Below are positions 25,912 to 44,833 of a stretch of 64,000 nucleotides of DNA, in pieces (position 1 is the first letter of the stretch; each line of letters opens with the position of its first letter). The notes beneath the pieces were generated by a model. That model ran no database searches, had not been told where the DNA came from, and worked only from the letters and a program-made list of their open reading frames with translations. Position numbers and translations under genes: made by a program. The stretch lies in assembly GCA_034428895.1 (NCBI GenBank), contig DAOUGM010000015.1, positions 743 through 64,742 of the forward strand. Direction: 5' to 3'. Origin of the DNA: Anaerolineaceae bacterium. GTDB lineage: Bacteria; Chloroflexota; Anaerolineae; Anaerolineales; Anaerolineaceae.

Positions 25912-26769
25912 TTATAAAATAATTTTTTTGCCGGTCAATGCCGGCTGCAGTTCGATGCTGCTGTGGTTCTGCTGGAAAGTACGAGAAACCAGGGCGTAAT
26001 GGTGCAAATCCCAGAAGTCTTCCTTCTCCCGTCCAATTTCCTGCAAATGAGCGATCACCAACCTTGCCGGCTGCAGGTGAGAGAAGAAAGCATAAAAATC
26101 TTCCAAATAAGGAAGAGTTTCCTGAAGCGCGCAGCCTTTGCCCAGCCAGAGATGAGCAAAGACTCCGTCCAGTCTGCCAAAATCGGGAAGTCCTGTACAG
26201 TCATACTGGCGGGTATCGCCAGGGAAAAGCCAGCGTCTGCCTTTGAACTCCGCCAGGTACCCCATTTCCGGAATTCCATGATCTCCGTTGTAATGGAGGG
26301 CGTTGAACGGGGTGAGTCTCAATCCATCGATGTGAAACTGTTTGCCGGGACTGGGGATAATGATGCTGTCGCTGCGCAAGCCGGCACGCTCGACGGCCAG
26401 GTCGAGCATGAACTCGGGGATGACCCAGCGGATGGGAAGATCGCGCAGCGCATGGATCAACTGCACATCGAAGTGATCGTTATGCGCGTGAGATAGCACG
26501 ACCAGTTCCAATTTGGCGAGGTCTTCAGACAGGTCGCACGAATGCGAGAGATGGATACGATGAAGAAGAAAGTACGGATCCAGTGCCCAACGGACATTGC
26601 AGGTGTGGAAAAGGTAATTGGCTGAATAGGTCAACCAGGCGGCATCTTCAGTGCTGTTTGTCTGCCATTCATCGATGATCTTTTGCCAGAGGGATGGATA
26701 TTCCCCGGCGATTGTTTTGCTCGGATCGTGGGTGGATGCTGCTTGAACACCGTTGGCATCATTCCGCAT
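25912..26769 (-). CDS. MBL-fold metallo-hydrolase (UlaG / COG2220-like)
   Basis: 285 aa with the HxHxDH motif in VLSHAHNDHFD. It overlaps the upstream PfkB gene by 11 nt (ATGCGGAATGA). Confidence 0.75.
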   Translation of the reverse strand: MRNDANGVQAASTHDPSKTIAGEYPSLWQKIIDEWQTNSTEDAAWLTYSANYLFHTCNVRWALDPYFLLHRIHLSHSCDLSEDLAKLELVVLSHAHNDHFDVQLIHALRDLPIRWVIPEFMLDLAVERAGLRSDSIIIPSPGKQFHIDGLRLTPFNALHYNGDHGIPEMGYLAEFKGRRWLFPGDTRQYDCTGLPDFGRLDGVFAHLWLGKGCALQETLPYLEDFYAFFSHLQPARLVIAHLQEIGREKEDFWDLHHYALVSRTFQQNHSSIELQPALTGKKIIL

Positions 26770-27655
26770 AGTATTGGTCTATGAAGGCTTCCACTTCGCT
26801 GATGGGGCGGTCGAACGGACCCTTGCGTTCCATCTTCAGGCTGGTTACCGCAGCCGCCCATTTTCCGGCTTCGCGCGGAGGCAGGGTGAGGCGTTTGGAG
26901 ACATAAGATCCCACGCAGGTATCTCCGCGGCCGCTGCGGCCTTCCATGGAATTGGAGTGGAAGCGATAATGGTAACATTTCCCTTCCGCGTGGATCATCA
27001 CGCCCTCACTGTGCGTGAGGACGATCTCTTTCGGTCCAAGGGCGGCGAAGATCCTGGCGGCTTTTTCGATGTCCGTCTCACCGGTCAGGTATTCAGCCTC
27101 CACCGCGTCTGATTTCAGAATGTCGAGGTTTTTCAATACCTCGGCCATTTCTTCCCAAGGTTCATATACGAGCGCTTCTCCGCGCACCACGCGCACGAAT
27201 CCCTGAACATCGGCGGAAAGGAGCACATTGTTTTTCTTACGCAAGGTTGTAAAGAACTCAGGCTCCACTTCGCCGCGCAAACTGGGGCTCACCACCACGG
27301 CGCGGGCTTCCAGACCTTCCAGGTGTTCGGGCTGAATGGTTCCGGCGATCCCTTTCACGTACAAATTCCTTTTATCCACATCGTGGGTCTTGTATTCCAA
27401 CGTCATCAAGGTGGAAGAGGGAGAATACACCGGGAAGCAATCGATGCCGTCCTTTTGAATATTCTTTACCACATGTTCGTCTTCTTTTGCCAGGCGGGTG
27501 ACAACGGCGGCTTTGATTCCCAGGGATTTGCCGGCATGGGCGGCATAGTTCATTCCTCCGCCGTCAAGGTAGTGGGTGCCGTCCGGGGTGATGATGGTAT
27601 CTTTTGTGTAATTTCCGGCAAATATTACGTCATAGAGCTTCAATGTATTCGTCAT
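26759..27655 (-). CDS. PfkB-family carbohydrate / phosphosugar kinase
   Basis: 298 aa with the ribokinase-like N-terminal GG dipeptide region (YLDGGGMNYA) and a C-terminal anion-hole-like motif (GRGDTCVGSY). Confidence 0.8.
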   Translation of the reverse strand: MTNTLKLYDVIFAGNYTKDTIITPDGTHYLDGGGMNYAAHAGKSLGIKAAVVTRLAKEDEHVVKNIQKDGIDCFPVYSPSSTLMTLEYKTHDVDKRNLYVKGIAGTIQPEHLEGLEARAVVVSPSLRGEVEPEFFTTLRKKNNVLLSADVQGFVRVVRGEALVYEPWEEMAEVLKNLDILKSDAVEAEYLTGETDIEKAARIFAALGPKEIVLTHSEGVMIHAEGKCYHYRFHSNSMEGRSGRGDTCVGSYVSKRLTLPPREAGKWAAAVTSLKMERKGPFDRPISEVEAFIDQYYAE

Positions 27656-27668
27656 GGATCACCTTAGG

Positions 27669-28682
27669 TCAGAAAATATTAATCAGAGCAGGAACACCCT
27701 TTGTTAATACCCAATAAATTCCGGCGGCTAAAAGACCCGTTGCAGGGATGGTGAAAAGCCAGGCGGAAGCGATTTCTCCTGCAACATGCCAGCGCACTTT
27801 ACTGAAGCGCTCGGCTGCGCCCACCCCCATGATGGCGGAACTAACCACTTGGGTGGTGCTGACAGGTCCCCCCAGGAGGGAGGAAAATAAAACAACGACG
27901 GCTGCAGATGCCTGGGCTGAAAAACCATGAATGGGTCGAATTTTATAAAATTTGGAGCCAAGAGTCTTGATCAAGCTCCATCCGCCAATGGCTGTGCCGA
28001 TTGAAATTGCCAGGGCGCTGACCAAAATTACCCAAGGGAAAACAGTAAATTGCGTGGTGATTCCGCTGATCATCAACCCAAGAGCGATGATCCCCATCGA
28101 CTTTGGAGCATCATTGCTCCCCATGCCCAATGCCGGTCCGAGGGCGGTGAATATTTGCATTTTTTTAAATAACTCATTGGCCCGCGGAGTGGCTTTCCAA
28201 CACAAGAGCCTGACAATGTTGGCAAATAACCAACCCGCGAAAAATCCAAAAAATGGGGAGATAAAAAGGAAGATCAGGATTTTACCCAATCCTGCGATAT
28301 TGAGCACAGCAAATCCAGCCTTCATTGCAACTGCACCCAAAATTCCACCGATCAAGGCGTGAGAGGAACTGCTTGGTATACCAAGAATCCAGGTAACCAC
28401 GTTCCAAGCGATGGCACTCACAAGAGCAGCGATCAAGACCATCATGTTGATATGCTCGGAGGTCACAATTTCATTACCGATCGTGTCTGCGACCTTGACA
28501 CCGAAAACATACGGTCCGCAGAAGACTGCCACGGCGGTAAGCAGAAGCGCAAGCTGCGGCCGTATGGCGCGCGAGGATATCATGGTCGCCACGATATTAC
28601 TGGAATCATGAATACCGTTCAAAAAACTATATAGAAGCGCCAGGACGATTAAAATGATCAACAGCATGGGCATGTAGTACAT
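27669..28682 (-). CDS. pit: Inorganic phosphate transporter, PiT family
   Basis: 337 aa with the PHO4 signature FLNGIHDSSNIVATMISSRAI and a second repeat MGSNDAPKSMGII. Confidence 0.9.
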   Translation of the reverse strand: MYYMPMLLIILIVLALLYSFLNGIHDSSNIVATMISSRAIRPQLALLLTAVAVFCGPYVFGVKVADTIGNEIVTSEHINMMVLIAALVSAIAWNVVTWILGIPSSSSHALIGGILGAVAMKAGFAVLNIAGLGKILIFLFISPFFGFFAGWLFANIVRLLCWKATPRANELFKKMQIFTALGPALGMGSNDAPKSMGIIALGLMISGITTQFTVFPWVILVSALAISIGTAIGGWSLIKTLGSKFYKIRPIHGFSAQASAAVVVLFSSLLGGPVSTTQVVSSAIMGVGAAERFSKVRWHVAGEIASAWLFTIPATGLLAAGIYWVLTKGVPALINIF

Positions 28683-31065: not shown

Positions 31066-32496
31066 TCAATTTTTAAGGATTGATACTTCAAGAAGCTCGT
31101 TAAACGTATCTATATACACGTCTGCCACGGCATTCTGTTCATAATTGAAGGCGATGGTTTTCATGCCCACGGCCCTGGCACCCTCAAGTTCGTATGCCTT
31201 GTGCCCCACGAAGACGGCTTCTTCAGGGGGAATGCCTGTCTGCCGTATGGCTTCTTCATACATGATCGGATGCGGCTTTCGCATGCCCATTTCCTTTGAG
31301 CTGATGACTACGTCCCACACGCAGCCAAATCCGTGCTGGTCGAACCAGGCTAATTTCCTGGAGAAATGCATGGCTGTATCGGTGATGATGCCGAGGATGA
31401 AACCTTTTTCCTTCAAGCAGTTGATCGTTTCAGGCACCCCTTCGACGATGGCAACCGTGTCATCATCCTGCCGGATGGCTTTCATCCCTTCCTGGATTTC
31501 GTCGAGGTCAATAATTCCGTATAACCGGATCAATTTTTCGTAATACTCCCGGCGTTCGATCTTCCCGGAAAACGCCAGGTCTCTCAAGCGCATTCTTTCC
31601 GTTTCAAAATCGGGAACTGGTTGCAATATTTTACCTGAAAGATATGCTTTCAGGTGTTTTTCCTTTTCAGGCCGGTAATACAGGATATCACCGGCATCAA
31701 AGAATATGGCTTTGATCTTTCGTTCTGCGGCAGTGTGTGTTCCTCTCCGTTCCTTGTGGATTTCATTTTTCAGGATCGGCAGCAGCTCATTCATGTTATC
31801 GATCACGACATCAGGCACGGCGCCTTCATCTTTTTCTCCATCATCATACTGATGGCGAATTTGAATGGCCAGTTGAAACCCCGCCTTTTTTGCCCCCAAT
31901 ATGTCGCGGCTGATCTTGTCTCCGATATAGGCACACGCACCGGTGGGGAAATTTGCCAGCCTTGCCGCGTGATAGAAAATGGACGGATCGGGTTTCCGCC
32001 GTCCGTATTGCGAGGATAGTATGATCGGGTCAAAGTATTGCTTGACCCCGTAATTTTCCAAAGTTATGGGAACCTGTGTGAGACTTTGCGTGTTGCTGAT
32101 GCATCCAATGTGCAAACCAAATTTCTGAATTGCTGCCAGTACTTGCGGCAACTCCGGCCGCATCTCACGAATATAAAATTTCGCTTCATATAAGTAGGAT
32201 AGATCTTCGGATATTTTTTTTAGCGCGTGAAGATCGATCGGCAGGTCGTTGAAAACATACTTCGACCAAATTACAAAGGTCGGCAGCTCGATCCTGGAGG
32301 TGAAATTCCATTTCCGGTAGGCGCCGATGCCGTGAGAGATCAGATCAGTCAATTGCTGATCGTCCAATGGCAAAGAAATGCCGGTAGTTTCGAGGCATTC
32401 GCGAAAGAGGTGAACTCGACTCAAGCGAAATTCTTTGGTAAATCGGAAGCTCTCGATGGTTCCGCCCACATCAAAGAAAATCGCTTTTAGGTCCAT
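31066..32496 (-). CDS. Double HAD-domain protein (two tandem HAD-like domains)
   Basis: Domain 1: FFDVGGTI, IGCISNT, RRKPDP, YIGDKISRD. Domain 2: FFDAGDIL, LGIITDT, MRKPHP, FVGHKAYELEG (motif IV Asp replaced by His). Confidence 0.8.
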   Translation of the reverse strand: MDLKAIFFDVGGTIESFRFTKEFRLSRVHLFRECLETTGISLPLDDQQLTDLISHGIGAYRKWNFTSRIELPTFVIWSKYVFNDLPIDLHALKKISEDLSYLYEAKFYIREMRPELPQVLAAIQKFGLHIGCISNTQSLTQVPITLENYGVKQYFDPIILSSQYGRRKPDPSIFYHAARLANFPTGACAYIGDKISRDILGAKKAGFQLAIQIRHQYDDGEKDEGAVPDVVIDNMNELLPILKNEIHKERRGTHTAAERKIKAIFFDAGDILYYRPEKEKHLKAYLSGKILQPVPDFETERMRLRDLAFSGKIERREYYEKLIRLYGIIDLDEIQEGMKAIRQDDDTVAIVEGVPETINCLKEKGFILGIITDTAMHFSRKLAWFDQHGFGCVWDVVISSKEMGMRKPHPIMYEEAIRQTGIPPEEAVFVGHKAYELEGARAVGMKTIAFNYEQNAVADVYIDTFNELLEVSILKN

Positions 32497-32623: not shown

Positions 32624-33853
32624 TTACTTCGCCAGGTTGAGCAGATAGAAATCGCGTGCTTCGACCATGTGGTCATAAGTGTATTGTTCTGCGATCAACC
32701 AGGTCATCGACTGCATTTCTTCCAGGGTCTTTTGACCTTCAGGAACCACATAGGAGGTGTCGGGGAAGAAGGTTCCAAACTTGGCCCATGGCTTCCTGCC
32801 TTCTTCACTGGTCTGCCACTTGATCCACAATTTGGCTGCATTGGGGTGAGGAGCCTGGTTGATAATGCCCAGGTAGCTCTGGCTCTGAATACCCAGGACG
32901 GGGGTGATTCCCCAGCAGGGTTCAAACGCCAGATTTCCATCGAGAACATCAGGATAATTGGAATATGAACCCAGAGCCATATAGCTATCCTTCATTCCCG
33001 GGGTGGCGAAAGCCGTATCGACCTCATCGCCGCCCGGTTCGGGGATCGGACCGTTCTGGGCAAAGCGTTTCAACCACAGCCAGCCGGCATCCGGAGTATC
33101 CGCATCCAAGACAGGTTCGGACCCGTACAGCTCCACGTAGGCGGCTTTCAATTCGTCTGCATGATAGGCGATGGTAATGAGTTTGCTCAGGGTGGATGCA
33201 TCATTGAGAGGATCCTCGATGAAGAATTTGCCTTTCCACTCAGGATTGGTGAATTCCCAAATGTTCTTAACCGGGCAGGTTTCGTTCAGCTCAGAGTTGT
33301 AGGCGAACACGCTGGTGCCCAGGCGGCTCATCAATAACGGTTGTGTGTATTGCTCGGGGGTTACAGCAAGCAGGTTATCCGGAACGAAGCGCCAGACATA
33401 TTTTTTCGGCAGCACATTGCCGACAAGTTCCGCGCCGCCGCTGCTTGCCCAAACATCACCGGTGAAGGCGCCGGCTTTTTGCTCTTCGACTGTCTTGAGC
33501 AGCACATCGTCGCCGCCGAGGTCGAAGGCCTGTACTTTAATGCCGGGATATTTTTCCATGAAACCTTCCGCGGCTTTTTCGATCTTGGAGGTGTTCGCGT
33601 AAACCAGCACTTCACCTTCCGCAATGGCGGCTGCTTCGATGGCGGCCCAATCCTGGGCACCTGTATCATACGGGCCAAGCTGATTGGCTTTTAACCATTC
33701 CTCTTGAGGGGTGAGCGGGGCCTCGGTGGCCGGGGCTTCGGTAGCCGCAGGGGGCGCAGCAGTTTCTGCTGGAGGGGCGGCTGTTGGGGTGGCGCAGGCG
33801 GCCAGAAAACTGATCAACAGTACAAGCGTTACAAATCGAAACAACGTTTTCAT
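32624..33853 (-). CDS. ABC transporter substrate-binding lipoprotein, AfuA/FbpA-like family
   Basis: 409 aa with a signal peptide plus lipobox (LISFLAAC), then the linker ATPTAAPPAETAAPPAATEAPATEAP. The body resembles iron(III)/Afu-type periplasmic binding proteins. Confidence 0.8.
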   Translation of the reverse strand: MKTLFRFVTLVLLISFLAACATPTAAPPAETAAPPAATEAPATEAPLTPQEEWLKANQLGPYDTGAQDWAAIEAAAIAEGEVLVYANTSKIEKAAEGFMEKYPGIKVQAFDLGGDDVLLKTVEEQKAGAFTGDVWASSGGAELVGNVLPKKYVWRFVPDNLLAVTPEQYTQPLLMSRLGTSVFAYNSELNETCPVKNIWEFTNPEWKGKFFIEDPLNDASTLSKLITIAYHADELKAAYVELYGSEPVLDADTPDAGWLWLKRFAQNGPIPEPGGDEVDTAFATPGMKDSYMALGSYSNYPDVLDGNLAFEPCWGITPVLGIQSQSYLGIINQAPHPNAAKLWIKWQTSEEGRKPWAKFGTFFPDTSYVVPEGQKTLEEMQSMTWLIAEQYTYDHMVEARDFYLLNLAK

Positions 33854-33967
33854 TTACCTTCCTCCTTGAATGAATAGGAACAGGACTAACTTTTATTGAC
33901 CGATTGGACGAATCTTGTTTCCCTGAGTACCTCCTTTTTACCTGATGCAGGGACAATCTACTTTTAA

Positions 33968-35050
33968 TTATCCGGTGACTAAATTCCCGGATTCCTTGTC
34001 ATATAGATTGACCGCATCCTCATCAAACGACAGCCACACTTTTTGATCCATTTGGATTTTGCTGACACCCATTTCTCTGATGGTCAGCTCTGTGTCTCCC
34101 TTGCGGGCAACGATGGTGGTTTCAGCACCTGATGGTAATACTGAATAAGCCTGGAATTCGACTGCGCTCCTATTGGGAGTGATGTGAATTGTGATGTCTT
34201 CCGGGTGAATTCCAACGACAACGTCACCTGTCTTGCCGTATGTCCTTACCGGGACATTGAATTTTCCAATATCGACTTCATTTTTTCCGGATACCCAGCC
34301 TGGAAGCAAATTGACCTTTGGATTACCGATAAAATCTGCCACAAAGAGATTGGCCGGGCAGTGATAGATCCTGTCAGGAGAGTCGATTTGCTGGATGACG
34401 CCTTCTTTCATCACGGCGATGTTGCTTGACATGGTCATGGCCTCAACCTGGTCGTGGGTCACATAAACAGTAGTGGCTCCGGAAACATGATGCAGGCGTT
34501 TGATTTCTGTGCGCATATCCATTCTCAGGCGCGCATCGAGGTTGGATAGGGGTTCATCCATGAGAAATACCTTCGGTCGATATGCCAGCATGCGGGCCAG
34601 TGCGATACGCTGCTGCTGTCCGCCGCTCATCTCACGCGGATAACGGTCCTCATATCCGCTCATTTTTACTTCTTCCAGGGCTTCCTTGACCCGCTTGCTC
34701 ATTTCCTCTTTGCTCATTTTCTGCATTTCAAGGGCAAAGGTAATGTTCTTATAAACATTCATGTGAGGCCACAACGCATAATTCTGGAACACAAGACCGA
34801 GGTCGCGCTGACCGGGTGGAAGGGAGATGCCTTTGGAATGAGAATAGACCAGCTTGTTGCCGATCAGGATTTCTCCGTCATTGGGATCTTCGAGTCCGGC
34901 CAGGCAGCGCAGCAAGGTGGTCTTTCCGCAACCTGAAGGCCCGAGCAGTGTCAAGAAAGTTCCAGGGTCGATCGTCAACGAGACATCATTGACTGCCACA
35001 ACGTCGCCAAATTTTTTTGTGAGATTTTTAATAATGATGGGGGTTTCCAT
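33968..35050 (-). CDS. ABC transporter ATP-binding protein (FbpC/PotA/MalK type with C-terminal TOBE-like domain)
   Basis: 360 aa with Walker A GPSGCGKTT, signature MSGGQQQR, Walker B VFLMDEPLSNLD and H-loop YVTHDQ. Confidence 0.9.
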   Translation of the reverse strand: METPIIIKNLTKKFGDVVAVNDVSLTIDPGTFLTLLGPSGCGKTTLLRCLAGLEDPNDGEILIGNKLVYSHSKGISLPPGQRDLGLVFQNYALWPHMNVYKNITFALEMQKMSKEEMSKRVKEALEEVKMSGYEDRYPREMSGGQQQRIALARMLAYRPKVFLMDEPLSNLDARLRMDMRTEIKRLHHVSGATTVYVTHDQVEAMTMSSNIAVMKEGVIQQIDSPDRIYHCPANLFVADFIGNPKVNLLPGWVSGKNEVDIGKFNVPVRTYGKTGDVVVGIHPEDITIHITPNRSAVEFQAYSVLPSGAETTIVARKGDTELTIREMGVSKIQMDQKVWLSFDEDAVNLYDKESGNLVTG

Positions 35051-35062
35051 GATCCATTCTCC

Positions 35063-36898
35063 TTACATTCCAAGGCCTTTTTTCAGGCTGCCGCCACGGA
35101 AACGGCTGATAATAAAATTGCCGATCAGAACAAGAACGATCAGCAGGATGATGACCGCATCTGCCTGTTGTTCGTTGCCATTTTCAATGTATCTCATGGT
35201 CATACTGGCCAGAACTGCTGTGGTAGGAGTGACCAGCAGGATGATGAGGGATAGTTCGCGCATCGTGGTAATGAATGTCAGCAGGAAGCCCGACACAAAG
35301 CCGGTGCTGGTCAGCGGAAATATGACGCGCTTGAAGCGCTGCCAGGGGGAAGCCCCGGCAATGGCGGCTGCCTCCTCAAGCTCTTTGCTCACCTGCAGCA
35401 TGGCCGATACACCACTGCGCGCAGAATAGGGAATATGCTTGGCAACCGATACCACCACCAGCAGCGCAAAAGTGCCGTAAAGCGGTGGAATTGGCCCCAC
35501 AGATCTCGTAAACATCGAGATGTAAACTGCGCCGAAAGCAATGCCAGGGATGACATAGGGAATGAACGACATTTGCTCGACAATTTTGGATAACCTCGTA
35601 CCGCGCCCCTTAACGATCGCGTAGCCCAGGATCACGCCCAGTAATGCCGTGAAGAGGGCGGTCAGCAACGACAGCCGGATGGAGTTCCATGCGCCGCGCC
35701 AGATCCTGTTGTTCAACAGGATCCCGGGTTCTCCGTTATTGATCGAGATATCTCCTTTGCCGATCCAATGGGCTAAAGTGAAATTGCTCAGGCTGTAGTC
35801 GCCGGTGCGCAGCATCAGCGTGCTGTAGACCAGGAGAGCAAGGGGCAAAACTGCAATGATGAATTCGAACACAACTACGAGCGCAGTAAAGATGACCTTA
35901 AAATTACGCAGTTTTACCTTTTTTGCCATGAAACCACGCCCGCCAATGGTTTCGTAACTCTTCCTGGTGCCAACCAATTTCTGGTTGATCATGATGGTCA
36001 CCATGGCAAAAAGGATCAAGATGATGGCGAGTACGAACCCGTCTCCATAGTTGCCAATTCCGGTGTTGGAACGCAGCATGGTGGAAAGTGTGTAATATCC
36101 CACCGGAACGCCGAGCACGTTGGGGCCGCCAAAGGTCCCCATAGTCTTGGAAAAGGTCATAATGAATCCCGAGGCGATTGCCGGAATGACCAGTGGGAAG
36201 GTGATCTTTCTCATGATGCGCCAGCGTCCGGCGCCAGCCAGTTCCCCGGCTTCTTCAAGGGATGAATCGATCGATAAAAGCGCAGCAGAAACAAAAAGGA
36301 AGAAAAAGGTGTAATAATGCAATCCGCTGCTGACGATGATGGGGAATGGCCCGTATGCCAGCCAGTCTGGCGTTGGAGCCCCCGTGATGAACTCGAGAAA
36401 ACCGGGCGTCCCCCCCGATTTTTGGTTTTTGAACAGCACCGTCCAGGCCATGGCGATCGTCCAGGAGGGCATGATGTAGGGAATGGTTGCCAGCATGTTG
36501 ATAATGCCTTTTCCCGGCACGTCGGTGCGCACCACCATCCATGCCATCAGACCGCCAATGATCAGTGCCAGACCTGTTGCGCCCAGCGAAACAGTCACAG
36601 AATGCATGAGCGGCTCGTAGGTCATGATCCTGGCAATTTTGCTGGTCAACATCCTCAACCAGTGATACCAGGTAAAATCGCCTACATTTGCATCCTTGAG
36701 TACACGCAGGTCATTTTCCTGGACCGTGATCGTGGTCATGAGCATGCGGTAAAGGGGGATGATGACCATGTACACCATGACCGCCAGCATGATCAGGGAC
36801 AACACCACATGGGGGGAGGTTATCCAACGGAAGAACCTCCGCAGATAAGCCAGCCATTTCTCGGAAGAATCTTGTCTTGAGTCTGATAAAACAGCCAT
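35063..36898 (-). CDS. ABC transporter permease, fused double transmembrane domain (FbpB/AfuB-like)
   Basis: 611 aa with two BPD-type permease repeats, each carrying an EAA-like loop (LEEAGELAGAGRW.. and LEEAAAIAGASPW..). Confidence 0.9.
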   Translation of the reverse strand: MAVLSDSRQDSSEKWLAYLRRFFRWITSPHVVLSLIMLAVMVYMVIIPLYRMLMTTITVQENDLRVLKDANVGDFTWYHWLRMLTSKIARIMTYEPLMHSVTVSLGATGLALIIGGLMAWMVVRTDVPGKGIINMLATIPYIMPSWTIAMAWTVLFKNQKSGGTPGFLEFITGAPTPDWLAYGPFPIIVSSGLHYYTFFFLFVSAALLSIDSSLEEAGELAGAGRWRIMRKITFPLVIPAIASGFIMTFSKTMGTFGGPNVLGVPVGYYTLSTMLRSNTGIGNYGDGFVLAIILILFAMVTIMINQKLVGTRKSYETIGGRGFMAKKVKLRNFKVIFTALVVVFEFIIAVLPLALLVYSTLMLRTGDYSLSNFTLAHWIGKGDISINNGEPGILLNNRIWRGAWNSIRLSLLTALFTALLGVILGYAIVKGRGTRLSKIVEQMSFIPYVIPGIAFGAVYISMFTRSVGPIPPLYGTFALLVVVSVAKHIPYSARSGVSAMLQVSKELEEAAAIAGASPWQRFKRVIFPLTSTGFVSGFLLTFITTMRELSLIILLVTPTTAVLASMTMRYIENGNEQQADAVIILLIVLVLIGNFIISRFRGGSLKKGLGM

Positions 36899-36988: not shown

Positions 36989-37873
36989 TCACTCTCCGTT
37001 GTTGTTCAACGCTTTCAATTGCTCCCGCAGCGAATCCAGTTTGTCCAGTGTCGGCATGATGGTTTCCTGCTCTTCGCCGGCAACGGAAAGGAGCAATGCG
37101 TTGATCACCGTCATGGGTACAACCAGGGAGTGGAATTCCCCCACCGGTCCACGGCGCGCTGCGAGCATCACGTCCGCCTTGTCGCCCAGGAGAACATCCA
37201 ACGTGTCGGTGAGCATGATGATGGGGCAGCCTACCTTTTTGCCGTAATCCAGGACGAGATTCAAAGCGGGATTCTGATCGAAAAAGCAGATGACGAAAAG
37301 CAGGTCGTTTTTGGTTAACTGCAGCAGCGGTTCGAGCATTTCGCGGCCGGAGGTCTTGAGGGGGATGACATGTTTTCCGAAACGATGCAGCCGGATTTCC
37401 ATGAGATCCACCAGGGAGATGGAAGGCCCAAGACCGAATACGAAGATGCGCTGGTGGGAATGCATCAGTTTTACGGCCTTGTTCATGGCTTTGCGGTCAA
37501 TGGATTCCAACGCCTGGGTCAGGTAATCGATCTCGGTGGCAGTGGTGCGCTCAAAAATATCTCCCCCTTCGCGCATTTCATCCAGGCGGCCCCGCAAGCG
37601 TGCCGAGTGCGTGACGCGCTGCCGGAAATTCTGCTGAAGAACGGCACGCATGGCTGGGTAACTGCCAAAGCCCAGCGTTCTGGCAAAACGAACCAGGGTT
37701 GCCTCGCTCAAGTCCAGGCGCCTGGCAATCTCCCCCGCGGAAAGGAACGCAGATTCCTCCTGGTTCTTGCGCAGGAAATTGGCGATGCGCTTCTCACTTT
37801 TTGTGAAACTGGCGAATTGTTCACTGATCAAAAGGCTGAAATCGACATTTTGGGGTAGTTTTTCGTCAGTCAT
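36989..37873 (-). CDS. RpiR/MurR-family transcriptional regulator (HTH_6 plus SIS phosphosugar-binding domain)
   Basis: HTH region SEKRIANFLRKNQEESAFLSAGEIARRLDLSEATLVRFARTLGF followed by a SIS domain (IFVFGLGPS...). Start revised to ATG at 37873 (MTDEKLPQ...). Confidence 0.85.
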   Translation of the reverse strand: MTDEKLPQNVDFSLLISEQFASFTKSEKRIANFLRKNQEESAFLSAGEIARRLDLSEATLVRFARTLGFGSYPAMRAVLQQNFRQRVTHSARLRGRLDEMREGGDIFERTTATEIDYLTQALESIDRKAMNKAVKLMHSHQRIFVFGLGPSISLVDLMEIRLHRFGKHVIPLKTSGREMLEPLLQLTKNDLLFVICFFDQNPALNLVLDYGKKVGCPIIMLTDTLDVLLGDKADVMLAARRGPVGEFHSLVVPMTVINALLLSVAGEEQETIMPTLDKLDSLREQLKALNNNGE

Positions 37874-37941
37874 GTACCACCTGGATATTTGATTAATGAA
37901 AAAAGGGAAAAACGACAATATCGCAAATGGTGTATGACCAC

Positions 37942-37983
37942 TTGCATTTGCAACAGTATACAGCAAATTAAAAATATATGCAA
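37942..37983 (-). promoter_or_regulatory. Candidate sigma-70 promoter with an adjacent TTGCA-AA-TGCAA palindrome (candidate RpiR operator)
   Basis: Minus strand: TTGCAT (37978-37983), 17-nt spacer, TATACT (37955-37960), then TTGCAAATGCAA (37942-37953) at about +1. More TTGCA half-sites lie upstream (TTTGCAATTTTACTTGCAT). Confidence 0.45.
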
Positions 37984-38014: not shown

Positions 38015-39220
38015 TTAATGATTGGATAAGCCATCACCCAAAACCTTTTGGAGATCTGTCGTAAGCCAGATCTCGGCATTCGTGGTATCGACCAGCATGT
38101 CGCATGTCTTCATTTGCGGTCGGTAGACCTCTTCCGCCATGATGTATTGCTCCCGGAAATAGCGGTTCAGGAAATACATCAACTCATACTTCTTGCGGTA
38201 CTCCATGTCGCGCTTCCATTTTCTCTTCAACCGGATTTCATCATCGGTCAGATAAACCACTTTGAGGCTGATCATGCTGGCGATCTCAGGCAGGAGGAAC
38301 GGGAAATTCCCTTCCATGAATATTACATCGGCAGCGGGTACATAAATGGGCGTGCATCCAGGTCTCAGGTTTCCCTGCATGTCGTGGCTGGATGTGGCAC
38401 GCACGAAATCATACCGGGGAATGCTGATCGCTTTTCCATGATAGATATCCATTAGCGATTGCTTGAACAGTTCATAATGCAGGGCTTCCTTCCCGCGCGA
38501 GTCGATGCCGTGTTCCTCCCTGAAATCGCGGTCGGTCAGGAAATTGTCCATCTCGATGCCGATCACTTTTCTTCCGGTGCGCTCGAATGCTTCCCGCAGC
38601 CGCTCGACGATCTCTGTTTTCCCGGCCGCGGTTTGCCCAGCGATGGCAATAATTACGGGTAACCCTTTCAACGCAGCCAGCTTTTGGATCGTACTGAGAA
38701 AACACTCGTCCACCTCGGCATTTGCCTGTTGGAATAATTTGTATCCAACCGATTGCACGTGATCAAAAAGATCACGGCGGCTCTCGAATTTCCGCCAGGG
38801 TTTGTACGCCAGGTGAGCCTCGATCTCGGGTGTGAAATATGCCGTACGGTGGAGGAAATAAAATCCGCGGATGTCGAAATAGAAATGCTTCTTGATCCAA
38901 TCCGGCGGGTAGGCTTCCGTTACCAATCCCACACACAGCATGCGCGTCAGGTTAAGGATGTTTTCATCCATCACAATTCGACCCCCGATGCGGGGTTTGA
39001 GCTGGACGGCTTCGTAAAAATTGATGTTGTTGACCTTTCTCTCGATCTCCAACATGGAATCCGGTTTTACTGCCTCCCACCCATCCGCCAGATGCACGCC
39101 TTCGCAAGCGTAGTGAAATTCATCCAATTCCAGGTCAGCCATGCCAGGGCAAACGGACTTCATTTTTTCATACAATGCCGGCAGGCAATCCTGCAGGGAA
39201 GATCGGGATGACACGCTCAT
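38015..39220 (-). CDS. Two-domain protein: unrecognised N-terminal domain (~190 aa) plus uridine kinase / phosphoribulokinase-family P-loop kinase domain (paralog A)
   Basis: 401 aa with P-loop IAIAGQTAAGKTE. The rest follows the Udk/PRK pattern: MDNF...(H)YELF...G..ISIPRYDF...DVIFMEGNFPF...LKVVYLTDDEIRLKRKWKRD. It is a paralog of 40453..41655. Confidence 0.75.
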   Translation of the reverse strand: MSVSSRSSLQDCLPALYEKMKSVCPGMADLELDEFHYACEGVHLADGWEAVKPDSMLEIERKVNNINFYEAVQLKPRIGGRIVMDENILNLTRMLCVGLVTEAYPPDWIKKHFYFDIRGFYFLHRTAYFTPEIEAHLAYKPWRKFESRRDLFDHVQSVGYKLFQQANAEVDECFLSTIQKLAALKGLPVIIAIAGQTAAGKTEIVERLREAFERTGRKVIGIEMDNFLTDRDFREEHGIDSRGKEALHYELFKQSLMDIYHGKAISIPRYDFVRATSSHDMQGNLRPGCTPIYVPAADVIFMEGNFPFLLPEIASMISLKVVYLTDDEIRLKRKWKRDMEYRKKYELMYFLNRYFREQYIMAEEVYRPQMKTCDMLVDTTNAEIWLTTDLQKVLGDGLSNH

Positions 39221-39226
39221 AAAAAG

Positions 39227-40432
39227 TTATGCTCCGTATTTCGCAAGACGTCCAGCATGCCCAAGGGCGAGGGGCATGATGCTTGTAGCCGGGATGCACC
39301 CCAGGCTGCCATGCGCACAGGCGCGTTCGCCGAATTGGGAGATCCCTTCGGGCCGGCACGTGCTGGAGTACAGCAGCAGGGGGACGGGATGCCAGCTGTG
39401 GGATTGCAGCACTGCCGGGGAGGAATGATCCCCTCCGATGATGAGTACATCCGGCTGCAGCTCTGTGACATGCGGCAGCAGTGCGTCGAACTCTTCAATG
39501 GCCTTGACCTTGCCGTCGAAATCGCCCATCTCGCCGCAGGTATCGGTCTTTTTAAAATGAAGATAAAAGAAATCGTAGTTCTGCCAGTGTTTCTCCATTG
39601 CCGCGAACTCATCCGCCAGGATTGTTCCACCAACGGGCAATACCTCCATCCCCACCAGCCTGGCGACCCCGCGGTACATTCCGTTGACCGCCACGGCTGC
39701 GGAGGTTATCTTATAGAGGTCAGTAAAGCTGGCCAGTGTGGGAAATTTTGAAAAACCGCGCAGCATGATCATATTGGCGGGTGAATGTCCTTTTAACACC
39801 ATCCTGGCTTTGGCGATGAATTCATTCACGATCTCAGCGGTTTTCGCAGAACCGGGTGTGCGTGGGTTGGCGGGATACGGCGGCACCCCGTTGATCAACG
39901 GATCCGAATCCGTCAGGTCGGCTTCGAGACCCCTGGCGCGCAGGATAAATGCAAAGCGGTGTTCTTTTACCGGTTCGACAAACAGCTCCACCCCATCGAT
40001 CTGGATTGCACGCAAAAGTTCCACCAGTTGTGCGCTCTCTGCCGATGGGATCCGTCCGGCACGCCTGTCGATGACCCGCCCATGCTCATCGACCGTACAG
40101 AAATTTCCCCGCGCCGCGATGTCATCGGGGCCAACCTCGAAATCCACCCCCAGCGCTTCCAGAACGCCTCGGCCAATCTCGTTTTTGATGGGATCGTAAC
40201 CAAAGAGCGCCAGGTGCCCCGGACCGCTGCCGACGGTGATGCCAGGTCCGGCAGGCTGGCTCAAACCCAGGAGAGAACGATTGGCGAGGGCATCCAGGTT
40301 GGGAGTGAAAGCAGTTTCCAGCTCGGTCTTTCCTCCCACCTCGCGTGGTAAACCGCCCAGGCCGTCCAGAATGAGCATGACAATTTTGCTGGTCGCCGGA
40401 ACGGTTTGTTTTTGAAAAAAGGATGTAAACAT
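39227..40432 (-). CDS. apgM: ApgM-type (archaeal-type, cofactor-independent) phosphoglycerate mutase family protein
   Basis: 401 aa with IVMLILDGLGG, the catalytic-Ser context VGSGPGHLALFGYDP, and the C-terminal GGDHSSP and H..PVP metal-ligand motifs of the alkaline-phosphatase superfamily. Confidence 0.8.
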   Translation of the reverse strand: MFTSFFQKQTVPATSKIVMLILDGLGGLPREVGGKTELETAFTPNLDALANRSLLGLSQPAGPGITVGSGPGHLALFGYDPIKNEIGRGVLEALGVDFEVGPDDIAARGNFCTVDEHGRVIDRRAGRIPSAESAQLVELLRAIQIDGVELFVEPVKEHRFAFILRARGLEADLTDSDPLINGVPPYPANPRTPGSAKTAEIVNEFIAKARMVLKGHSPANMIMLRGFSKFPTLASFTDLYKITSAAVAVNGMYRGVARLVGMEVLPVGGTILADEFAAMEKHWQNYDFFYLHFKKTDTCGEMGDFDGKVKAIEEFDALLPHVTELQPDVLIIGGDHSSPAVLQSHSWHPVPLLLYSSTCRPEGISQFGERACAHGSLGCIPATSIMPLALGHAGRLAKYGA

Positions 40433-40452
40433 GGCAATCCTCGATCAATCAT

Positions 40453-41655
40453 TCATGGTTGTGGGAACGATGAGAGATCTAATCCTTGAGCAAGTTTTGA
40501 TGTGACCCAGAGCGCTGCTCCGGTGGTATCCACGACCATATCACATAAAGACATCAAAGGGCGATACACTTCCTCCGCCCGCAGGAACTGGGTCCTGAAA
40601 TAACGGTTGCAGAAATAAACCTGGTCGTATTTCTTGCGGTAATCGATATCCCGCCGCCACTTGCGTTTGAGCCGCACCGGATCGTCAGTCAAATAGACGA
40701 TTTTCAACCCCACCCACTGGGCGATTTCGGGCAAATGGAAGGGGAAATTGCCTTCCAGGAAGATGATATCCGCCGGGTCAATTTGAATGGGTGTCTGCCC
40801 GGGTCGAAGATTTCCGTCGAGGTCGTGGCTCGAAGTGGTGGTGATGAAGTTGTAGCGCGGGATATTGACCGTTCGCCCCTGCATGAGATTTTGCAGGCTG
40901 TTGCGGAAAATCTCAAAGTGGATCACGTTCTGATCCAGTACCTTGCCGTCGCGAAAGCTGCCGTCCTTATAAAAGTTGTCCATTTCAATGGAAACGATGC
41001 TCTTGCCGCGTTGTTGAAACATCTCTTTCAGCCTTTGGGCAATTTCCGTTTTCCCTGAACCGGAAGGGCCTGCGAGGGTCATAAGAAAGGGAAGCGGAGC
41101 AGTCTCAACCAGTTTATGAACGATGTGCATGAACGCCTGGTCGATTTCCTCGTTTGCCGCAATGAACTCCCGCAGGCCGATGTCCTGGCGGCTTTCGAAG
41201 GTTCTTTGTTTTTTCTCGAAAAGTAAGCGCGGTTTTTCATTCAAATGCCCGCGGACCTCCGGAGGAAAATACTCTGTCCGAACGAAGAATAAAAAACCGC
41301 GAATATCAAAGTAAAACAGGTTGCCGATCCAGTCCACCGGGTAAGTACCGGTTACCAATCCTTTGAACAAAGTCTGCGCGAGTTGAACGATGGTTCGATC
41401 AAGTACGATATGATCTTCTCTCAGCGGTTTGAGTTGTATGCCGCTGAAGAATTTGTGCTGGCGAACGCGTGTTTCGATTTCCTCCACGCCCGGGAGAGGA
41501 ACGCTTAACCAGCCGGATTCGGGAATAAGGTTGCCGAGTGCATAATCGAACTCATACCATTCAAGATCGTTGATCCCCGGACAGACCTTTTTCATTGCAT
41601 CGAAAAGGATGCGGGAGAAAAGCCCGCGATCATTCAGGATCGAGGCATCGATCAT
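40453..41655 (-). CDS. Two-domain protein: unrecognised N-terminal domain plus uridine kinase / PRK-family P-loop kinase domain (paralog B)
   Basis: 400 aa with P-loop TLAGPSGSGKTE. It is collinear with paralog A over its full length, for example CPGINDLEWYEFDYA, YPVDWIGNLFYFDIRGFLFF, NIPRYNF and IVYLTDDPVRLKRKWRRD. Confidence 0.75.
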   Translation of the reverse strand: MIDASILNDRGLFSRILFDAMKKVCPGINDLEWYEFDYALGNLIPESGWLSVPLPGVEEIETRVRQHKFFSGIQLKPLREDHIVLDRTIVQLAQTLFKGLVTGTYPVDWIGNLFYFDIRGFLFFVRTEYFPPEVRGHLNEKPRLLFEKKQRTFESRQDIGLREFIAANEEIDQAFMHIVHKLVETAPLPFLMTLAGPSGSGKTEIAQRLKEMFQQRGKSIVSIEMDNFYKDGSFRDGKVLDQNVIHFEIFRNSLQNLMQGRTVNIPRYNFITTTSSHDLDGNLRPGQTPIQIDPADIIFLEGNFPFHLPEIAQWVGLKIVYLTDDPVRLKRKWRRDIDYRKKYDQVYFCNRYFRTQFLRAEEVYRPLMSLCDMVVDTTGAALWVTSKLAQGLDLSSFPQP

Positions 41656-43284: not shown

Positions 43285-44073
43285 CTATTCCAACCCGCTC
43301 GATGTGGATAATTCGACTGTGCGAATCTTCTCCATGCACACCTGCGGGACCTTGGGGAAGAGCTGTAATAGCTCACTAAACTCGTAGATAACGGCATCCG
43401 GTTTGTTTTCTTCTGTGACTGATTCCTGCGCCAAATCCTCCGGACTGATCATGATGACGACCATGCCGAAGCCGGCGTTGCGCGTACCGGTCACATCACG
43501 CTGCAGGTTGTCGCCGACATAGACGCATTTGGCGGGTTCCGTTTCAGCGCGGCGTGCAGCTTCATAATAGATCTCCGGATCCGGTTTGCGTACGCCCATC
43601 ACCGAGGAGAGCACCACGGATTTGAAATATCCGGCCAGGTTGTCGGCTTCCAGCCAATCCGGTATTTCCCTGGAGGTGATCACGTTGCTGATCAAGCCCA
43701 GGGTGTATCCACGGCGGTGAAGCTCGGCAACCACTTCACTGCCGTTTTCCACCATCACCCTGAGTCCCATGGACTGGCGATACTGGTAGGTCAATTCAAG
43801 TCCCAATGGGGCAACTTTTTCCGCCGGAAACTCCGGTGCCAACCAGCGCGTCCATAACTCCGACTCGGGAGCCTCTTTGAGGTTGGCAAAAGCCCACTTT
43901 CGGTATACCTTATATCGTTCGTCCACTTTTTGAATAAATGAATCCGGATCCTCATGCGTGCCCAACAGTTCAACGATCCTGCGCCTGGCTCGGGCTTGAT
44001 GGTCTTCATTGGGCGTCAGGATGCGCAGGGTATTGCCGACGTCCAGGAAAATTGCTTCGATCTCAGGGTTCAT
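43285..44073 (-). CDS. HAD-like hydrolase, DVGNT subfamily (paralog 2)
   Basis: Motifs IFLDVGNTL, LGLISNV, VRKPDP, YVGDNLQRD. Start revised to ATG at 44073 (MNPEIEAIF..., RBS AAGGGAAG), which removes the overlap with the upstream paralog. Confidence 0.8.
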   Translation of the reverse strand: MNPEIEAIFLDVGNTLRILTPNEDHQARARRRIVELLGTHEDPDSFIQKVDERYKVYRKWAFANLKEAPESELWTRWLAPEFPAEKVAPLGLELTYQYRQSMGLRVMVENGSEVVAELHRRGYTLGLISNVITSREIPDWLEADNLAGYFKSVVLSSVMGVRKPDPEIYYEAARRAETEPAKCVYVGDNLQRDVTGTRNAGFGMVVIMISPEDLAQESVTEENKPDAVIYEFSELLQLFPKVPQVCMEKIRTVELSTSSGLE

Positions 44074-44101: not shown

Positions 44102-44833
44102 TTATTTGCGGGGTGGAAAAATATCCAGCAGTTGGCGGGTTTCCTTGATGGCGTAATCCGGTTGATGTTCCCCACTCGGAGGTTCTTTTGCCAGGGTGGC
44201 AGGCTCTTCAAAGAGGATCATCATCCCAAATCCGGCTGCGCGCGTCCCATCCACATCGCGCACCGGGTTATCACCCACGTAAGCGCATTTGGCGGGTTCC
44301 ACGCCGATATCGCGAGCAGCCATCCAATAAATTTCAGGGTCGGGTTTTCGATACCTTACTTTGGATGAGAGGATTACGGTTTTTAAGTATTTACCCAGAC
44401 CCTCGCTTTCCATCCAATCCGGGATCTCGGTCTCGGTGATGGTGTTGGCAATGATGCCCAGTTTATAACCGCGGCGGTCGAGCTCAATGATGGTCGATTT
44501 GGCGTCATCACGCGGAACCCGTCGTCCGTCATGATCGCGCCACAAACGGGTCAGTTTGCCAGCCATGGGAGCGATCTTCTCATAGGGGTAATCGGGGAGG
44601 AGGTGGATGGTCCATAATTCCTTCTCTGAGGCTTCGACCAGCGTTTCCTTGGATGTTTTGCGGTGTTTTTTCCATCGGGTTTCGAGCTTTTCGAAGAATT
44701 CCTCTTCGGTTTCCGTGGTGCCAACCAGCGCCATTAAGTCCTTGCGGGCCTGGGCTTGAAACTCAGGCTCTTCCAACAGAATTCGCAACGTGTTGCCGAC
44801 ATCCAGAAAAATGGCTTCAATTTCGGAATTCAT
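44102..44833 (-). CDS. HAD-like hydrolase, DVGNT subfamily (paralog 1)
   Basis: 243 aa with motifs IFLDVGNTL, LGIIANT, YRKPDP, YVGDNPVRD. RBS is CAGGAG. It is the first gene of the co-directional array. Confidence 0.8.
   Translation of the reverse strand: MNSEIEAIFLDVGNTLRILLEEPEFQAQARKDLMALVGTTETEEEFFEKLETRWKKHRKTSKETLVEASEKELWTIHLLPDYPYEKIAPMAGKLTRLWRDHDGRRVPRDDAKSTIIELDRRGYKLGIIANTITETEIPDWMESEGLGKYLKTVILSSKVRYRKPDPEIYWMAARDIGVEPAKCAYVGDNPVRDVDGTRAAGFGMMILFEEPATLAKEPPSGEHQPDYAIKETRQLLDIFPPRK

Follow-up and report, generated by a model that had tools for sequence, protein, structure and literature searches.

Paralogous Udk/PRK-Type Kinases with an Orphan N-Terminal Domain in a Conserved Phosphoryl-Transfer Operon of Anaerolineae

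Introduction

Members of the Anaerolineae rank with the most abundant fermenters of soils, sediments, activated sludge and anaerobic digesters, and few have been cultured. This work concerns a pair of kinase genes, kinA and kinB, on a 64,000-nucleotide stretch of DNA from an Anaerolineaceae bacterium (contig DAOUGM010000015.1, positions 743 to 64,742), referred to here as the window, in whose numbering all coordinates are given. Each gene encodes a P-loop kinase of the uridine kinase (Udk)/phosphoribulokinase (PRK) type, fused to an N-terminal domain that matches no known family. An earlier description made from the DNA letters, the sequence-only reading, had grouped the two genes with two phosphomutase genes as a duplicated mutase-kinase module. 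These four genes form the centre of a far longer conserved operon, in which HAD proteins, a phosphate transporter, an RpiR regulator and an ABC importer are encoded as well. The locus represents a known kinase fold in a new domain architecture, as part of an uncharacterised conserved pathway. Literature searches found no description of the kinase family, its N-terminal domain or the operon.

The Kinase Genes

The two genes and their domains are laid out as follows:

38015..39220, minus strand: kinA, Udk/PRK-type P-loop kinase with orphan N-domain, 401 residues
38663-39220, minus strand: kinA N-domain, residues 1-186
38015-38662, minus strand: kinA kinase domain, residues ~187-401, PF00485 on residues 190-379
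40453..41655, minus strand: kinB, paralog of kinA with 49% identity, 400 residues
41095-41655, minus strand: kinB N-domain, residues 1-187
40453-41094, minus strand: kinB kinase domain, PF00485 on residues 193-376

The proteins had been taken for collinear paralogs, and the open reading frames (ORFs) at these positions bear this out: BLASTP aligns them collinearly over residues 16-394 with 186/379 identities (49%, E = 9e-142). The PRK/Udk family PF00485 is confined to the C-terminal half, which had likewise been predicted. Both proteins pass its gathering threshold (69.6 bits for kinA and 71.8 bits for kinB, cut-off 22), and profile positions 1-189 of 196 are covered.

Motifs and residues were counted in an alignment of 38 sequences and in a set of 120 kinases from 86 loci. 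The sequence blocks originally noticed in the two window proteins are invariant across the family in both sets. They comprise CPG..DLE..EF.YA and FYFDIRGF.F..RT.YF in the N-terminal half, the P-loop AG(Q/P)(T/S)..GKTEI, and the downstream blocks MDNF, IPRY(D/N)F, EGNFPF and YLTDD..RLKRKW(K/R)RD..YRKKY. Databases contain more than 2,300 members of the family, at ~55-80% identity, which shows that the observation is not due to chance. Many of these members carry the JGI label “uridine kinase”.

The Orphan N-Terminal Domain

The sequence-only reading was unable to place the N-terminal half in any family, and sequence, profile and fold searches also came back empty. Pfam returned nothing for the N-terminal ~186 residues of kinA or kinB at E <= 10, no NCBIfam model matches the N-domain of either kinase, and a phmmer search of PDB sequences yielded only a 12.7-bit chance match. 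Foldseek found no match to a model of the isolated domain, with a best E of 4 in PDB and 1.3 in BFVD. When 1.84 billion representative proteins were searched exhaustively with phmmer, relatives turned up in only 64 clusters, none of them plant, fungal or cyanobacterial. The domain is N-terminal in every full-length (~380-402 residues) cluster, and the shorter matches fit fragments of the same architecture. Together, these searches rule out a diverged known domain, and an hhalign probability of 0.2% rules out a decayed duplicate of the kinase half. In all of these sequence, profile and fold searches, the N-domain is thus an orphan.

In the AlphaFold2 model of full-length kinA (pLDDT 89.8, pTM 0.87), the N-domain is mainly helical with two short hairpins and is packed on the kinase core; modelled alone, it reaches a pLDDT of 78.6. 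Lineage-specific and of alpha/beta type, the domain is rich in invariant aromatic and acidic residues. At 14 positions, invariance reaches 97% or more among 119 sequences from both the kinA and kinB clades: E34, F35, Y37, W48, D85, G98, W108, F115, D116, R118, F120, F122, N167 and D171. To judge from the alignment, the domain is under strong constraint, in a pattern that would suit a ligand-binding site better than a linker. Seated on the kinase core, it may act as a cap for binding the acceptor or for oligomerisation.

Catalytic Residues and Family Placement

The Walker A motif, the catalytic Asp after strand 2 and the Arg-rich lid are all present in the kinase half and align with those of uridine/cytidine kinase (UCK) 1 and PRK. 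The P-loop G195..G200-K201-(T/S)202, the catalytic Asp225 (equivalent to UCK Asp62 and PRK Asp43), Glu303-Gly304 and the lid residues R330, R333, K334, R337 and R342 are invariant or nearly so in the 120 sequences. The catalytic residues are intact in both paralogs, which are therefore predicted to be competent kinases.

Set against Udk, PRK, the type I pantothenate kinase (PanK) CoaA and glycerate kinase (GLYK), the family falls between Udk and PRK by profile score. In PDB, the family profile matches UCK2 with 64 bits, cyanobacterial PRK with 56 and Thermus Udk with 45. PanK scores 11.5 bits (E ~0.8), and the match to the GLYK structure 7xpc_A reaches 18.1 bits (E = 0.0086) and covers only query positions 178-232, around the P-loop. 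This search rules out a specific affinity to GLYK or CoaA. A Foldseek search with the full kinA model ranks human UCK2 and UCK1 first, followed by PRKs and then PanK (RMSD 8-12 A); the UCK matches have E ~1e-11, a target-normalised TM of ~0.7 and 22-25% identity, with E = 6e-12 and a TM of 0.71-0.73 for UCK2. Every curated cut-off tested for a specific kinase family is missed, including those of the NCBIfam Udk equivalogs NF004018 (73.3 vs 180 bits) and TIGR00235 (64.8 vs 220.3 bits) and of the PRK model NF005655 (57.9 and 51.5 vs 236 bits). By these measures, the kinase half appears to be a distinct subfamily between Udk and PRK.

With Udk, UCK1 and UCK2, the family has in common a P-loop NMP-kinase-like fold, the catalytic Asp, the EG motif, the Arg-rich lid and Y-D-F. 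It differs from them in its ~190 extra N-terminal residues, its operon context, the missed equivalog cut-offs and a family-specific T-S-S-H-D insertion after Y-D-F. The nucleoside contacts of UCK2, which we take to be Tyr65, Asp84 (the ligand of the ribose 2'- and 3'-OH), Tyr112, Phe114, His117 and Arg166, give a mixed picture. Tyr112 and Phe114 are conserved, but the Asp84 column is variable in the 38-sequence alignment (R/T/Q/L) and Arg166 corresponds to Lys. Tyr65 is not conserved in the family: kinB has Tyr here, and kinA has Leu. The alignment at His117 is ambiguous because of an insertion of 4-8 residues.

PRK of the type II, plant-cyanobacterial kind (6GVE, 6HZK) is the second-best profile match. 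PRK sequences recovered from PDB alignments were aligned with the family, and the loop D225-N-F-L-T-D230-R231-x-x-R234 was found to align with PRK D43-D-Y-H-S-L-D49-R50-K-Q-R53 and not with the UCK loop. R234 is invariant (120/120), and R231 is found in 95/98 kinA-type and 15/22 kinB-type sequences. The D-R-x-x-R element is all that is common: PRK D-D-Y-H is replaced by D-N-F-L and Y-N-H by Y-D-F, the position of PRK His46 is occupied by Leu or Tyr, the PRK C-terminal extension is lacking, and there are no Calvin-cycle genes nearby. In PRK, Arg50 adjoins the active site, the equivalent Arg64 of the Chlamydomonas enzyme is required for full activity, and positively charged active-site regions have been proposed as sugar-phosphate binders (PMC6800369). 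The shared loop suggests that the acceptor of the kinA/kinB family is probably anionic as well.

The Adjacent Mutases

Each kinase gene directly follows a phosphomutase gene:

39227..40432, minus strand: ApgM-type cofactor-independent phosphoglycerate mutase homolog, 401 residues, PF10143 and PF01676
41659..43266, minus strand: permuted GpmI-type cofactor-independent phosphoglycerate mutase (iPGM) homolog, ORF of 535 residues (probably starting at 43248, giving 529 residues as in its homolog P0185)

The order permuted GpmI, kinB, ApgM, kinA originally proposed holds in the window. The intergenic gaps are 3, 20 and 6 nt, such that the permuted iPGM gene ends 3 nt before the start of kinB and the ApgM gene ends 6 nt before the start of kinA. 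However, the two mutases come from different families, which does not fit a duplicated mutase-kinase module.

The ApgM homolog matches NCBIfam NF003160 with 563 bits, above the 468-bit equivalog cut-off, and aligns end to end with 2ZKT from P. horikoshii (E = 1e-68), with the Ser, His and Asp motifs in register. The iPGM homolog is circularly permuted: its residues 322-532 correspond to residues 3-213 of 1EJJ, and its residues 23-315 to residues 219-510. Its match to TIGR01307 amounts to 486 bits, summed over two out-of-order stretches. The best 120 homologs are full-length, carry Anaerolineae or Chloroflexi names, and have the identical permuted order at 64-99% identity. No account of a circularly permuted iPGM came up in one search of the literature. 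The permuted protein retains D12, S62, H123, R153, R185, R191, R261, R264, K336, D403, H407, D444, H445 and H462 of 1EJJ. The metal ligands are complete, as is the set of basic residues that bind phosphoglycerate, and Ser62 is in place. The changes are S at D154 and TEKSSHGC for SDGGVHSH, which suggest a modified substrate site.

Long antisense ORFs (for example, 39257-39751, plus strand) overlap the ApgM, kinA and iPGM genes and recur elsewhere, each cluster being found in 19-42 loci. Rather than real genes, these seem to be shadows of the highly conserved sense ORFs.

Synteny across the Anaerolineae and Kinase Duplication

A scan of GTDB species genomes identified 80 loci, nearly all of them in metagenome-assembled genomes (MAGs) of Anaerolineae or other Chloroflexota. 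The full locus is also carried by Levilinea saccharolytica KIBI-1 (locus L031), which we take to be a cultured strain. The conserved operon spans ~17 kb, with 55-85% protein identity across the class.

Same-strand features upstream of the kinase were counted in the 64 loci with at least 5 kb of upstream sequence. A permuted iPGM is present in 62, an ApgM in 57 and a HAD protein in 63, so the mutase linkage holds well beyond the source genome. Downstream, among the 58 loci with at least 8 kb available, the RpiR regulator is found in 46, the permease in 46, the ATPase in 50, the substrate-binding protein (SBP) in 46, a HAD-HAD fusion in 45 and a HAD-TIM fusion in 38, the last of which is duplicated in some loci. 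Several genomes (L026, L039 and L077) have kinases and a permuted iPGM without ApgM. The genes for the phosphate transporter PiT and for PhoU_div are still linked to the kinase in the rearranged loci L007, L009, L021 and L083.

The mutase-kinase-mutase-kinase order is not fixed, since 34 of the 64 loci have a single kinase and 30 have at least two. In a neighbour-joining tree of 120 kinases, kinB forms one deep clade that is always located between the permuted iPGM and ApgM. A second, independent duplication is nested within kinA, and its copies mostly lie directly after kinA, those in L019 and L060 being found between the permuted iPGM and ApgM instead. The kinase alone was thus duplicated, at least twice independently, and gene order and tree together rule out duplication of a mutase-kinase module.

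The kinA and kinB clades share 49 invariant positions, including all the catalytic ones, and show only three clade-specific strict differences, all conservative, which gives no clear specificity switch between them. The main difference is found three and four residues after the catalytic Asp, where kinA has L-T and kinB has Y-K; in addition, 7/22 kinB sequences lack R231. UCK and PRK contact the acceptor at these positions, so a subtle substrate shift is possible, as is hetero-oligomerisation.

Unbiased clustering of flanking ORFs revealed a divergently transcribed module of LacI, UxaE, short-chain dehydrogenase (SDR) and LarA-like (Lar_N) genes that adjoins HAD1, the first gene of the operon, in 26-37 loci and is absent from the window. 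An example is L001 (1-4223), with a LacI regulator, a UxaE-family epimerase, an SDR and a LarA-like protein; about half of the related genomes have this set. The module points to acid-sugar metabolism beside the operon.

The most divergent full-length member of the kinase family is P0135 (392 residues, ~37% N-domain identity), encoded in locus L085 (8658-12279) on a contig rich in fragmented genes. Its gene follows that of a MobA/IspD-like nucleotidyltransferase, faces a DAGK/YegS-type lipid kinase gene and lies beside a Na/Pi cotransporter-PhoU pair. This cotransporter pair and the linkage of the kinase to PiT and PhoU_div suggest a link to phosphate handling.

The Remainder of the Operon in the Window

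The operon begins with two HAD genes upstream of the permuted iPGM and continues downstream of kinA:

44102..44833, minus strand: HAD1, 243 residues, motif I DVGNT, first gene of the conserved operon
43285..44073, minus strand: HAD2, 262 residues from the ATG at 44073, motif I DVGNT
36989..37966, minus strand: RpiR/MurR-family regulator (HTH_6 and SIS), likely starting at 37873 (294 residues)
35063-36898, minus strand: ABC fused double permease, 611 residues
33968-35050, minus strand: ABC ATPase, FbpC-like
32624-33853, minus strand: ABC lipoprotein SBP
31066-32496, minus strand: HAD-HAD fusion, 476 residues
29329-31038, minus strand: fusion of HAD with a xylose-isomerase-like TIM barrel (AP_endonuc_2), 569 residues
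28687-29307, minus strand: PhoU_div/DUF47, 21 nt downstream of the HAD-TIM gene
27669-28682, minus strand: PiT/PHO4 phosphate transporter

The order is thus HAD1, HAD2, permuted iPGM, kinB, ApgM, kinA, RpiR, importer, HAD-HAD, HAD-TIM, PhoU_div and PiT. The last two genes appear to be co-transcribed with the HAD-TIM gene. Promoter and terminator scans of 27-45.4 kb gave counts not above those of shuffled sequence and are therefore uninformative on the operon boundaries. In one homolog, P0208 (786 residues), HAD2 is fused to the permuted iPGM. RpiR/SIS regulators generally sense sugar phosphates.

The ABC importer (32624-36898) has the architecture of FbpABC, AfuABC and PhnSTUV. Identity of the SBP to the window protein is bimodal across loci, at ~36-43% and ~63-85%. 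With the AfuABC loci of Actinobacillus and Citrobacter, the importer shares the FbpABC architecture, the fused double permease, the FbpC-like ATPase and a cluster-D SBP. However, the window SBP has no match to AfuA structures at E <= 1, and AfuABC loci lack a comparable set of kinase, mutase and HAD genes. Import of sugar phosphates and pyridoxal phosphate (PLP) has been shown for “iron” transporters of the FbpABC kind, and AfuABC itself was mis-annotated as an iron transporter and carries organophosphates (PMC4546632, PMC8427247). The importer described here is likely prone to the same mis-annotation.

The five HAD domains of the operon have the motif I D-x-G-x-(T/I), in the forms FLDVGNT, FFDVGGT, FFDAGDI and FFDIGGT, and keep the Mg-binding GDxxxD of motif IV. 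D-x-G-x-T is found in >90% of the orthologous HAD domains from 86 loci, with Gly at the Asp+2 general acid/base position. Glucose-1-phosphatase YihX of E. coli has a similar DLGNV motif. Acyl or glycosyl phosphates, or other substrates with a good leaving group, may be preferred by the HAD domains; their matches to pyrimidine nucleotidases are weak. The nearest solved relative of the barrel half of HAD-TIM is the uncharacterised MJ1311 (3wqo).

Beyond PiT (25912-27655, minus strand) are genes for a 298-residue protein without a Pfam match and then a metallo-beta-lactamase-fold hydrolase. The former has weak NCBIfam matches to KDG kinase and ribokinase, and its L082 ortholog matches PfkB. Several other loci have both genes close to the kinase; those of L082 lie immediately before a kinase gene without mutase neighbours.

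Proposed Function

The current thinking, which we put forward tentatively, is that kinA and kinB constitute a previously undescribed, Anaerolineae-restricted subfamily of Udk/PRK-fold small-molecule kinases that act on a small anionic substrate and deliver the product to the mutases. For the substrate, a glycerate-like compound or sugar acid is the first choice and a sugar phosphate the next, a ranking that we consider possible and hold with some reserve. The conserved enzymes consist of phosphoryl-transfer proteins (the kinase, two mutases and five HAD domains) and one TIM-barrel isomerase or epimerase. Coupling of kinase and mutases is indicated by the permuted iPGM in 62/64 loci, the gaps of 3-20 nt and the HAD-iPGM fusion. 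An acid-sugar setting is suggested by the LacI-UxaE-SDR-LarA-like module beside HAD1 and by the downstream gene with weak resemblance to PfkB/KDG kinases.

In this scheme, the kinase would use ATP to phosphorylate a hydroxyl of its small anionic substrate, most plausibly a glycerate-like hydroxy-acid or sugar acid and next a sugar phosphate. The phospho-product would go to the co-transcribed permuted iPGM and ApgM, which would reposition the phosphate. The AfuABC-like transporter would import the (organo)anionic compound and the RpiR/SIS protein would sense a sugar phosphate, while the atypical HAD domains would remove phosphate and PiT would move inorganic phosphate. The domain architecture, the intact catalytic residues, the lack of N-domain relatives, the class-wide synteny and the repeated kinase duplication are observed, and the nature of the acceptor, the reaction order and the role of the N-domain are inferred.

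A more ambitious version of this scheme is rather unlikely in its entirety. The kinase would commit its substrate to a pathway found throughout the Anaerolineae and not yet described, in which an organophosphate or acid sugar enters through the mis-annotated “iron-type” importer. Apart from one TIM-barrel isomerisation, processing would consist purely of phosphoryl transfer by the kinase, the permuted iPGM, ApgM and the five HAD domains without the Asp+2 general acid, coupled to PiT. The N-domain would then have a new fold and form the acceptor site for a compound outside the range of known Udk/PRK enzymes.

Several observations weigh against the tentative scheme. A kinase, mutases and phosphatases working on one metabolite would make a futile cycle, which leaves the real reaction order and the role of five HAD domains unexplained. 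With Gly at Asp+2, the HAD domains may not be ordinary phosphatases at all. In the permuted iPGM, D154 is changed to S and TEKSSHGC replaces SDGGVHSH, and its substrate may thus not be phosphoglycerate. The kinase domain has no specific similarity to the PRK-family glycerate kinase. The family conserves Tyr270 and Phe272, the counterparts of Tyr112 and Phe114 in UCK2, so that a nucleoside-like acceptor is still conceivable. The only PDB similarity of the SBP is a distant one to Fe-binding proteins. In L082 and L085, the kinase has no adjacent mutases. Finally, a place for the N-domain in the lining of the active site is conjectural.

Two other pathways were considered and dropped. Phytate or inositol-phosphate catabolism was suggested by the phosphatase domains, PiT and the anion-type SBP, but neither an inositol dehydrogenase nor any other Iol gene is part of the conserved core. 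Synthesis of mannosyl- or glucosyl-glycerate as a compatible solute was dropped because the locus has no glycosyltransferase.

Alternative Explanations

One alternative is that the enzymes are D-glycerate kinases, forming 2- or 3-phosphoglycerate that iPGM and ApgM equilibrate toward enolase. In the Anaerolineae they would then stand in for the class I/II glycerate kinases without being orthologous to them. The sequence-only reading had offered glycerate-type acid kinases as a coherent interpretation and had placed plant and yeast glycerate 3-kinase in this fold family, and this placement is correct: the class III enzymes are members of the PRK/UK superfamily (PMC2063504). This reading is coherent with the gene context: the mutases keep phosphoglycerate-type catalytic and basic residues, with ApgM above the phosphoglycerate mutase equivalog cut-off, sugar-acid genes flank the operon, and the invariant R234 could hold a carboxylate. 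However, the family profile gives 18 bits with GLYK (7xpc; characterised members are Arabidopsis At1g80380 and yeast YGR205W), confined to the P-loop, against 64 with UCK2 and 56 with PRK. The permuted iPGM deviates at D154 and at the SDGGVHSH motif, and a glycerate kinase would leave unexplained the five HAD domains, TIM barrel, importer and PiT, as well as the need for two different mutases and, often, two kinases. On balance, this explanation is unlikely.

A PRK-like kinase might instead take a phosphorylated substrate, imported as the monophosphate through the AfuABC-like transporter, to a bisphosphate such as 2,3-bisphosphoglycerate (from 2- or 3-phosphoglycerate) or a pentose or hexose bisphosphate. 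The sugar-phosphate sensing typical of RpiR/SIS regulators would fit, as would the high phosphate flux implied by phosphatase-like domains and a co-transcribed PiT. The PRK-type D-R-x-x-R acceptor loop (PMC6800369) and the import of sugar phosphates and PLP by FbpABC-like transporters (PMC4546632, PMC8427247) also speak in its favour. The idea is nevertheless improbable, with PRK His46 replaced by Leu or Tyr, Y-N-H by Y-D-F, a PRK NCBIfam score of 58 bits vs 236, and a conserved locus that lacks Rubisco, ribose-1,5-bisphosphate (R15P) isomerase and bisphosphate aldolase.

That the proteins are ordinary uridine/cytidine kinases with an added regulatory domain, adjacent to mutases by accident, is very unlikely. 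UCK1 and UCK2 are the best matches in sequence and fold, Tyr270 and Phe272 correspond to nucleoside contacts, the JGI names say “uridine kinase”, and the HAD domains weakly resemble pyrimidine nucleotidases. Against this, the scores of 73 and 65 bits fall short of the Udk cut-offs of 180 and 220, the Asp84 position is variable and Tyr65 aligns with Leu in kinA, and the locus has no nucleoside phosphorylase or nucleoside transporter. Synteny with mutases, HAD genes and importer in 62/64 loci and gaps of 3-6 nt argue that the adjacency is not incidental.

It is also highly doubtful that kinB is a non-catalytic or regulatory partner in a hetero-oligomer with kinA: oligomers are obligatory in UCK and PRK, at least two independent duplications of the kinase took place, and 49 shared positions with three conservative clade-specific changes would suit a partner, but kinB keeps every catalytic residue, and L-T vs Y-K and the R231 loss in 7/22 at acceptor-contact positions could equally reflect a substrate shift.

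Significance

Proteins of the kinA/kinB type match PF00485 and are often named “uridine kinase” by JGI, and there is consequently a risk that MAG surveys score them as phosphoribulokinase, a marker of the Calvin cycle, or as uridine kinase. The N-domain is a candidate for a new Pfam family or fold. The finding is robust and widespread, and the presence of the full locus in L. saccharolytica KIBI-1 makes direct testing possible. For the Anaerolineae, the class-wide operon of ~17 kb probably represents a central route of carbon and phosphorus handling that current metabolic reconstructions miss.

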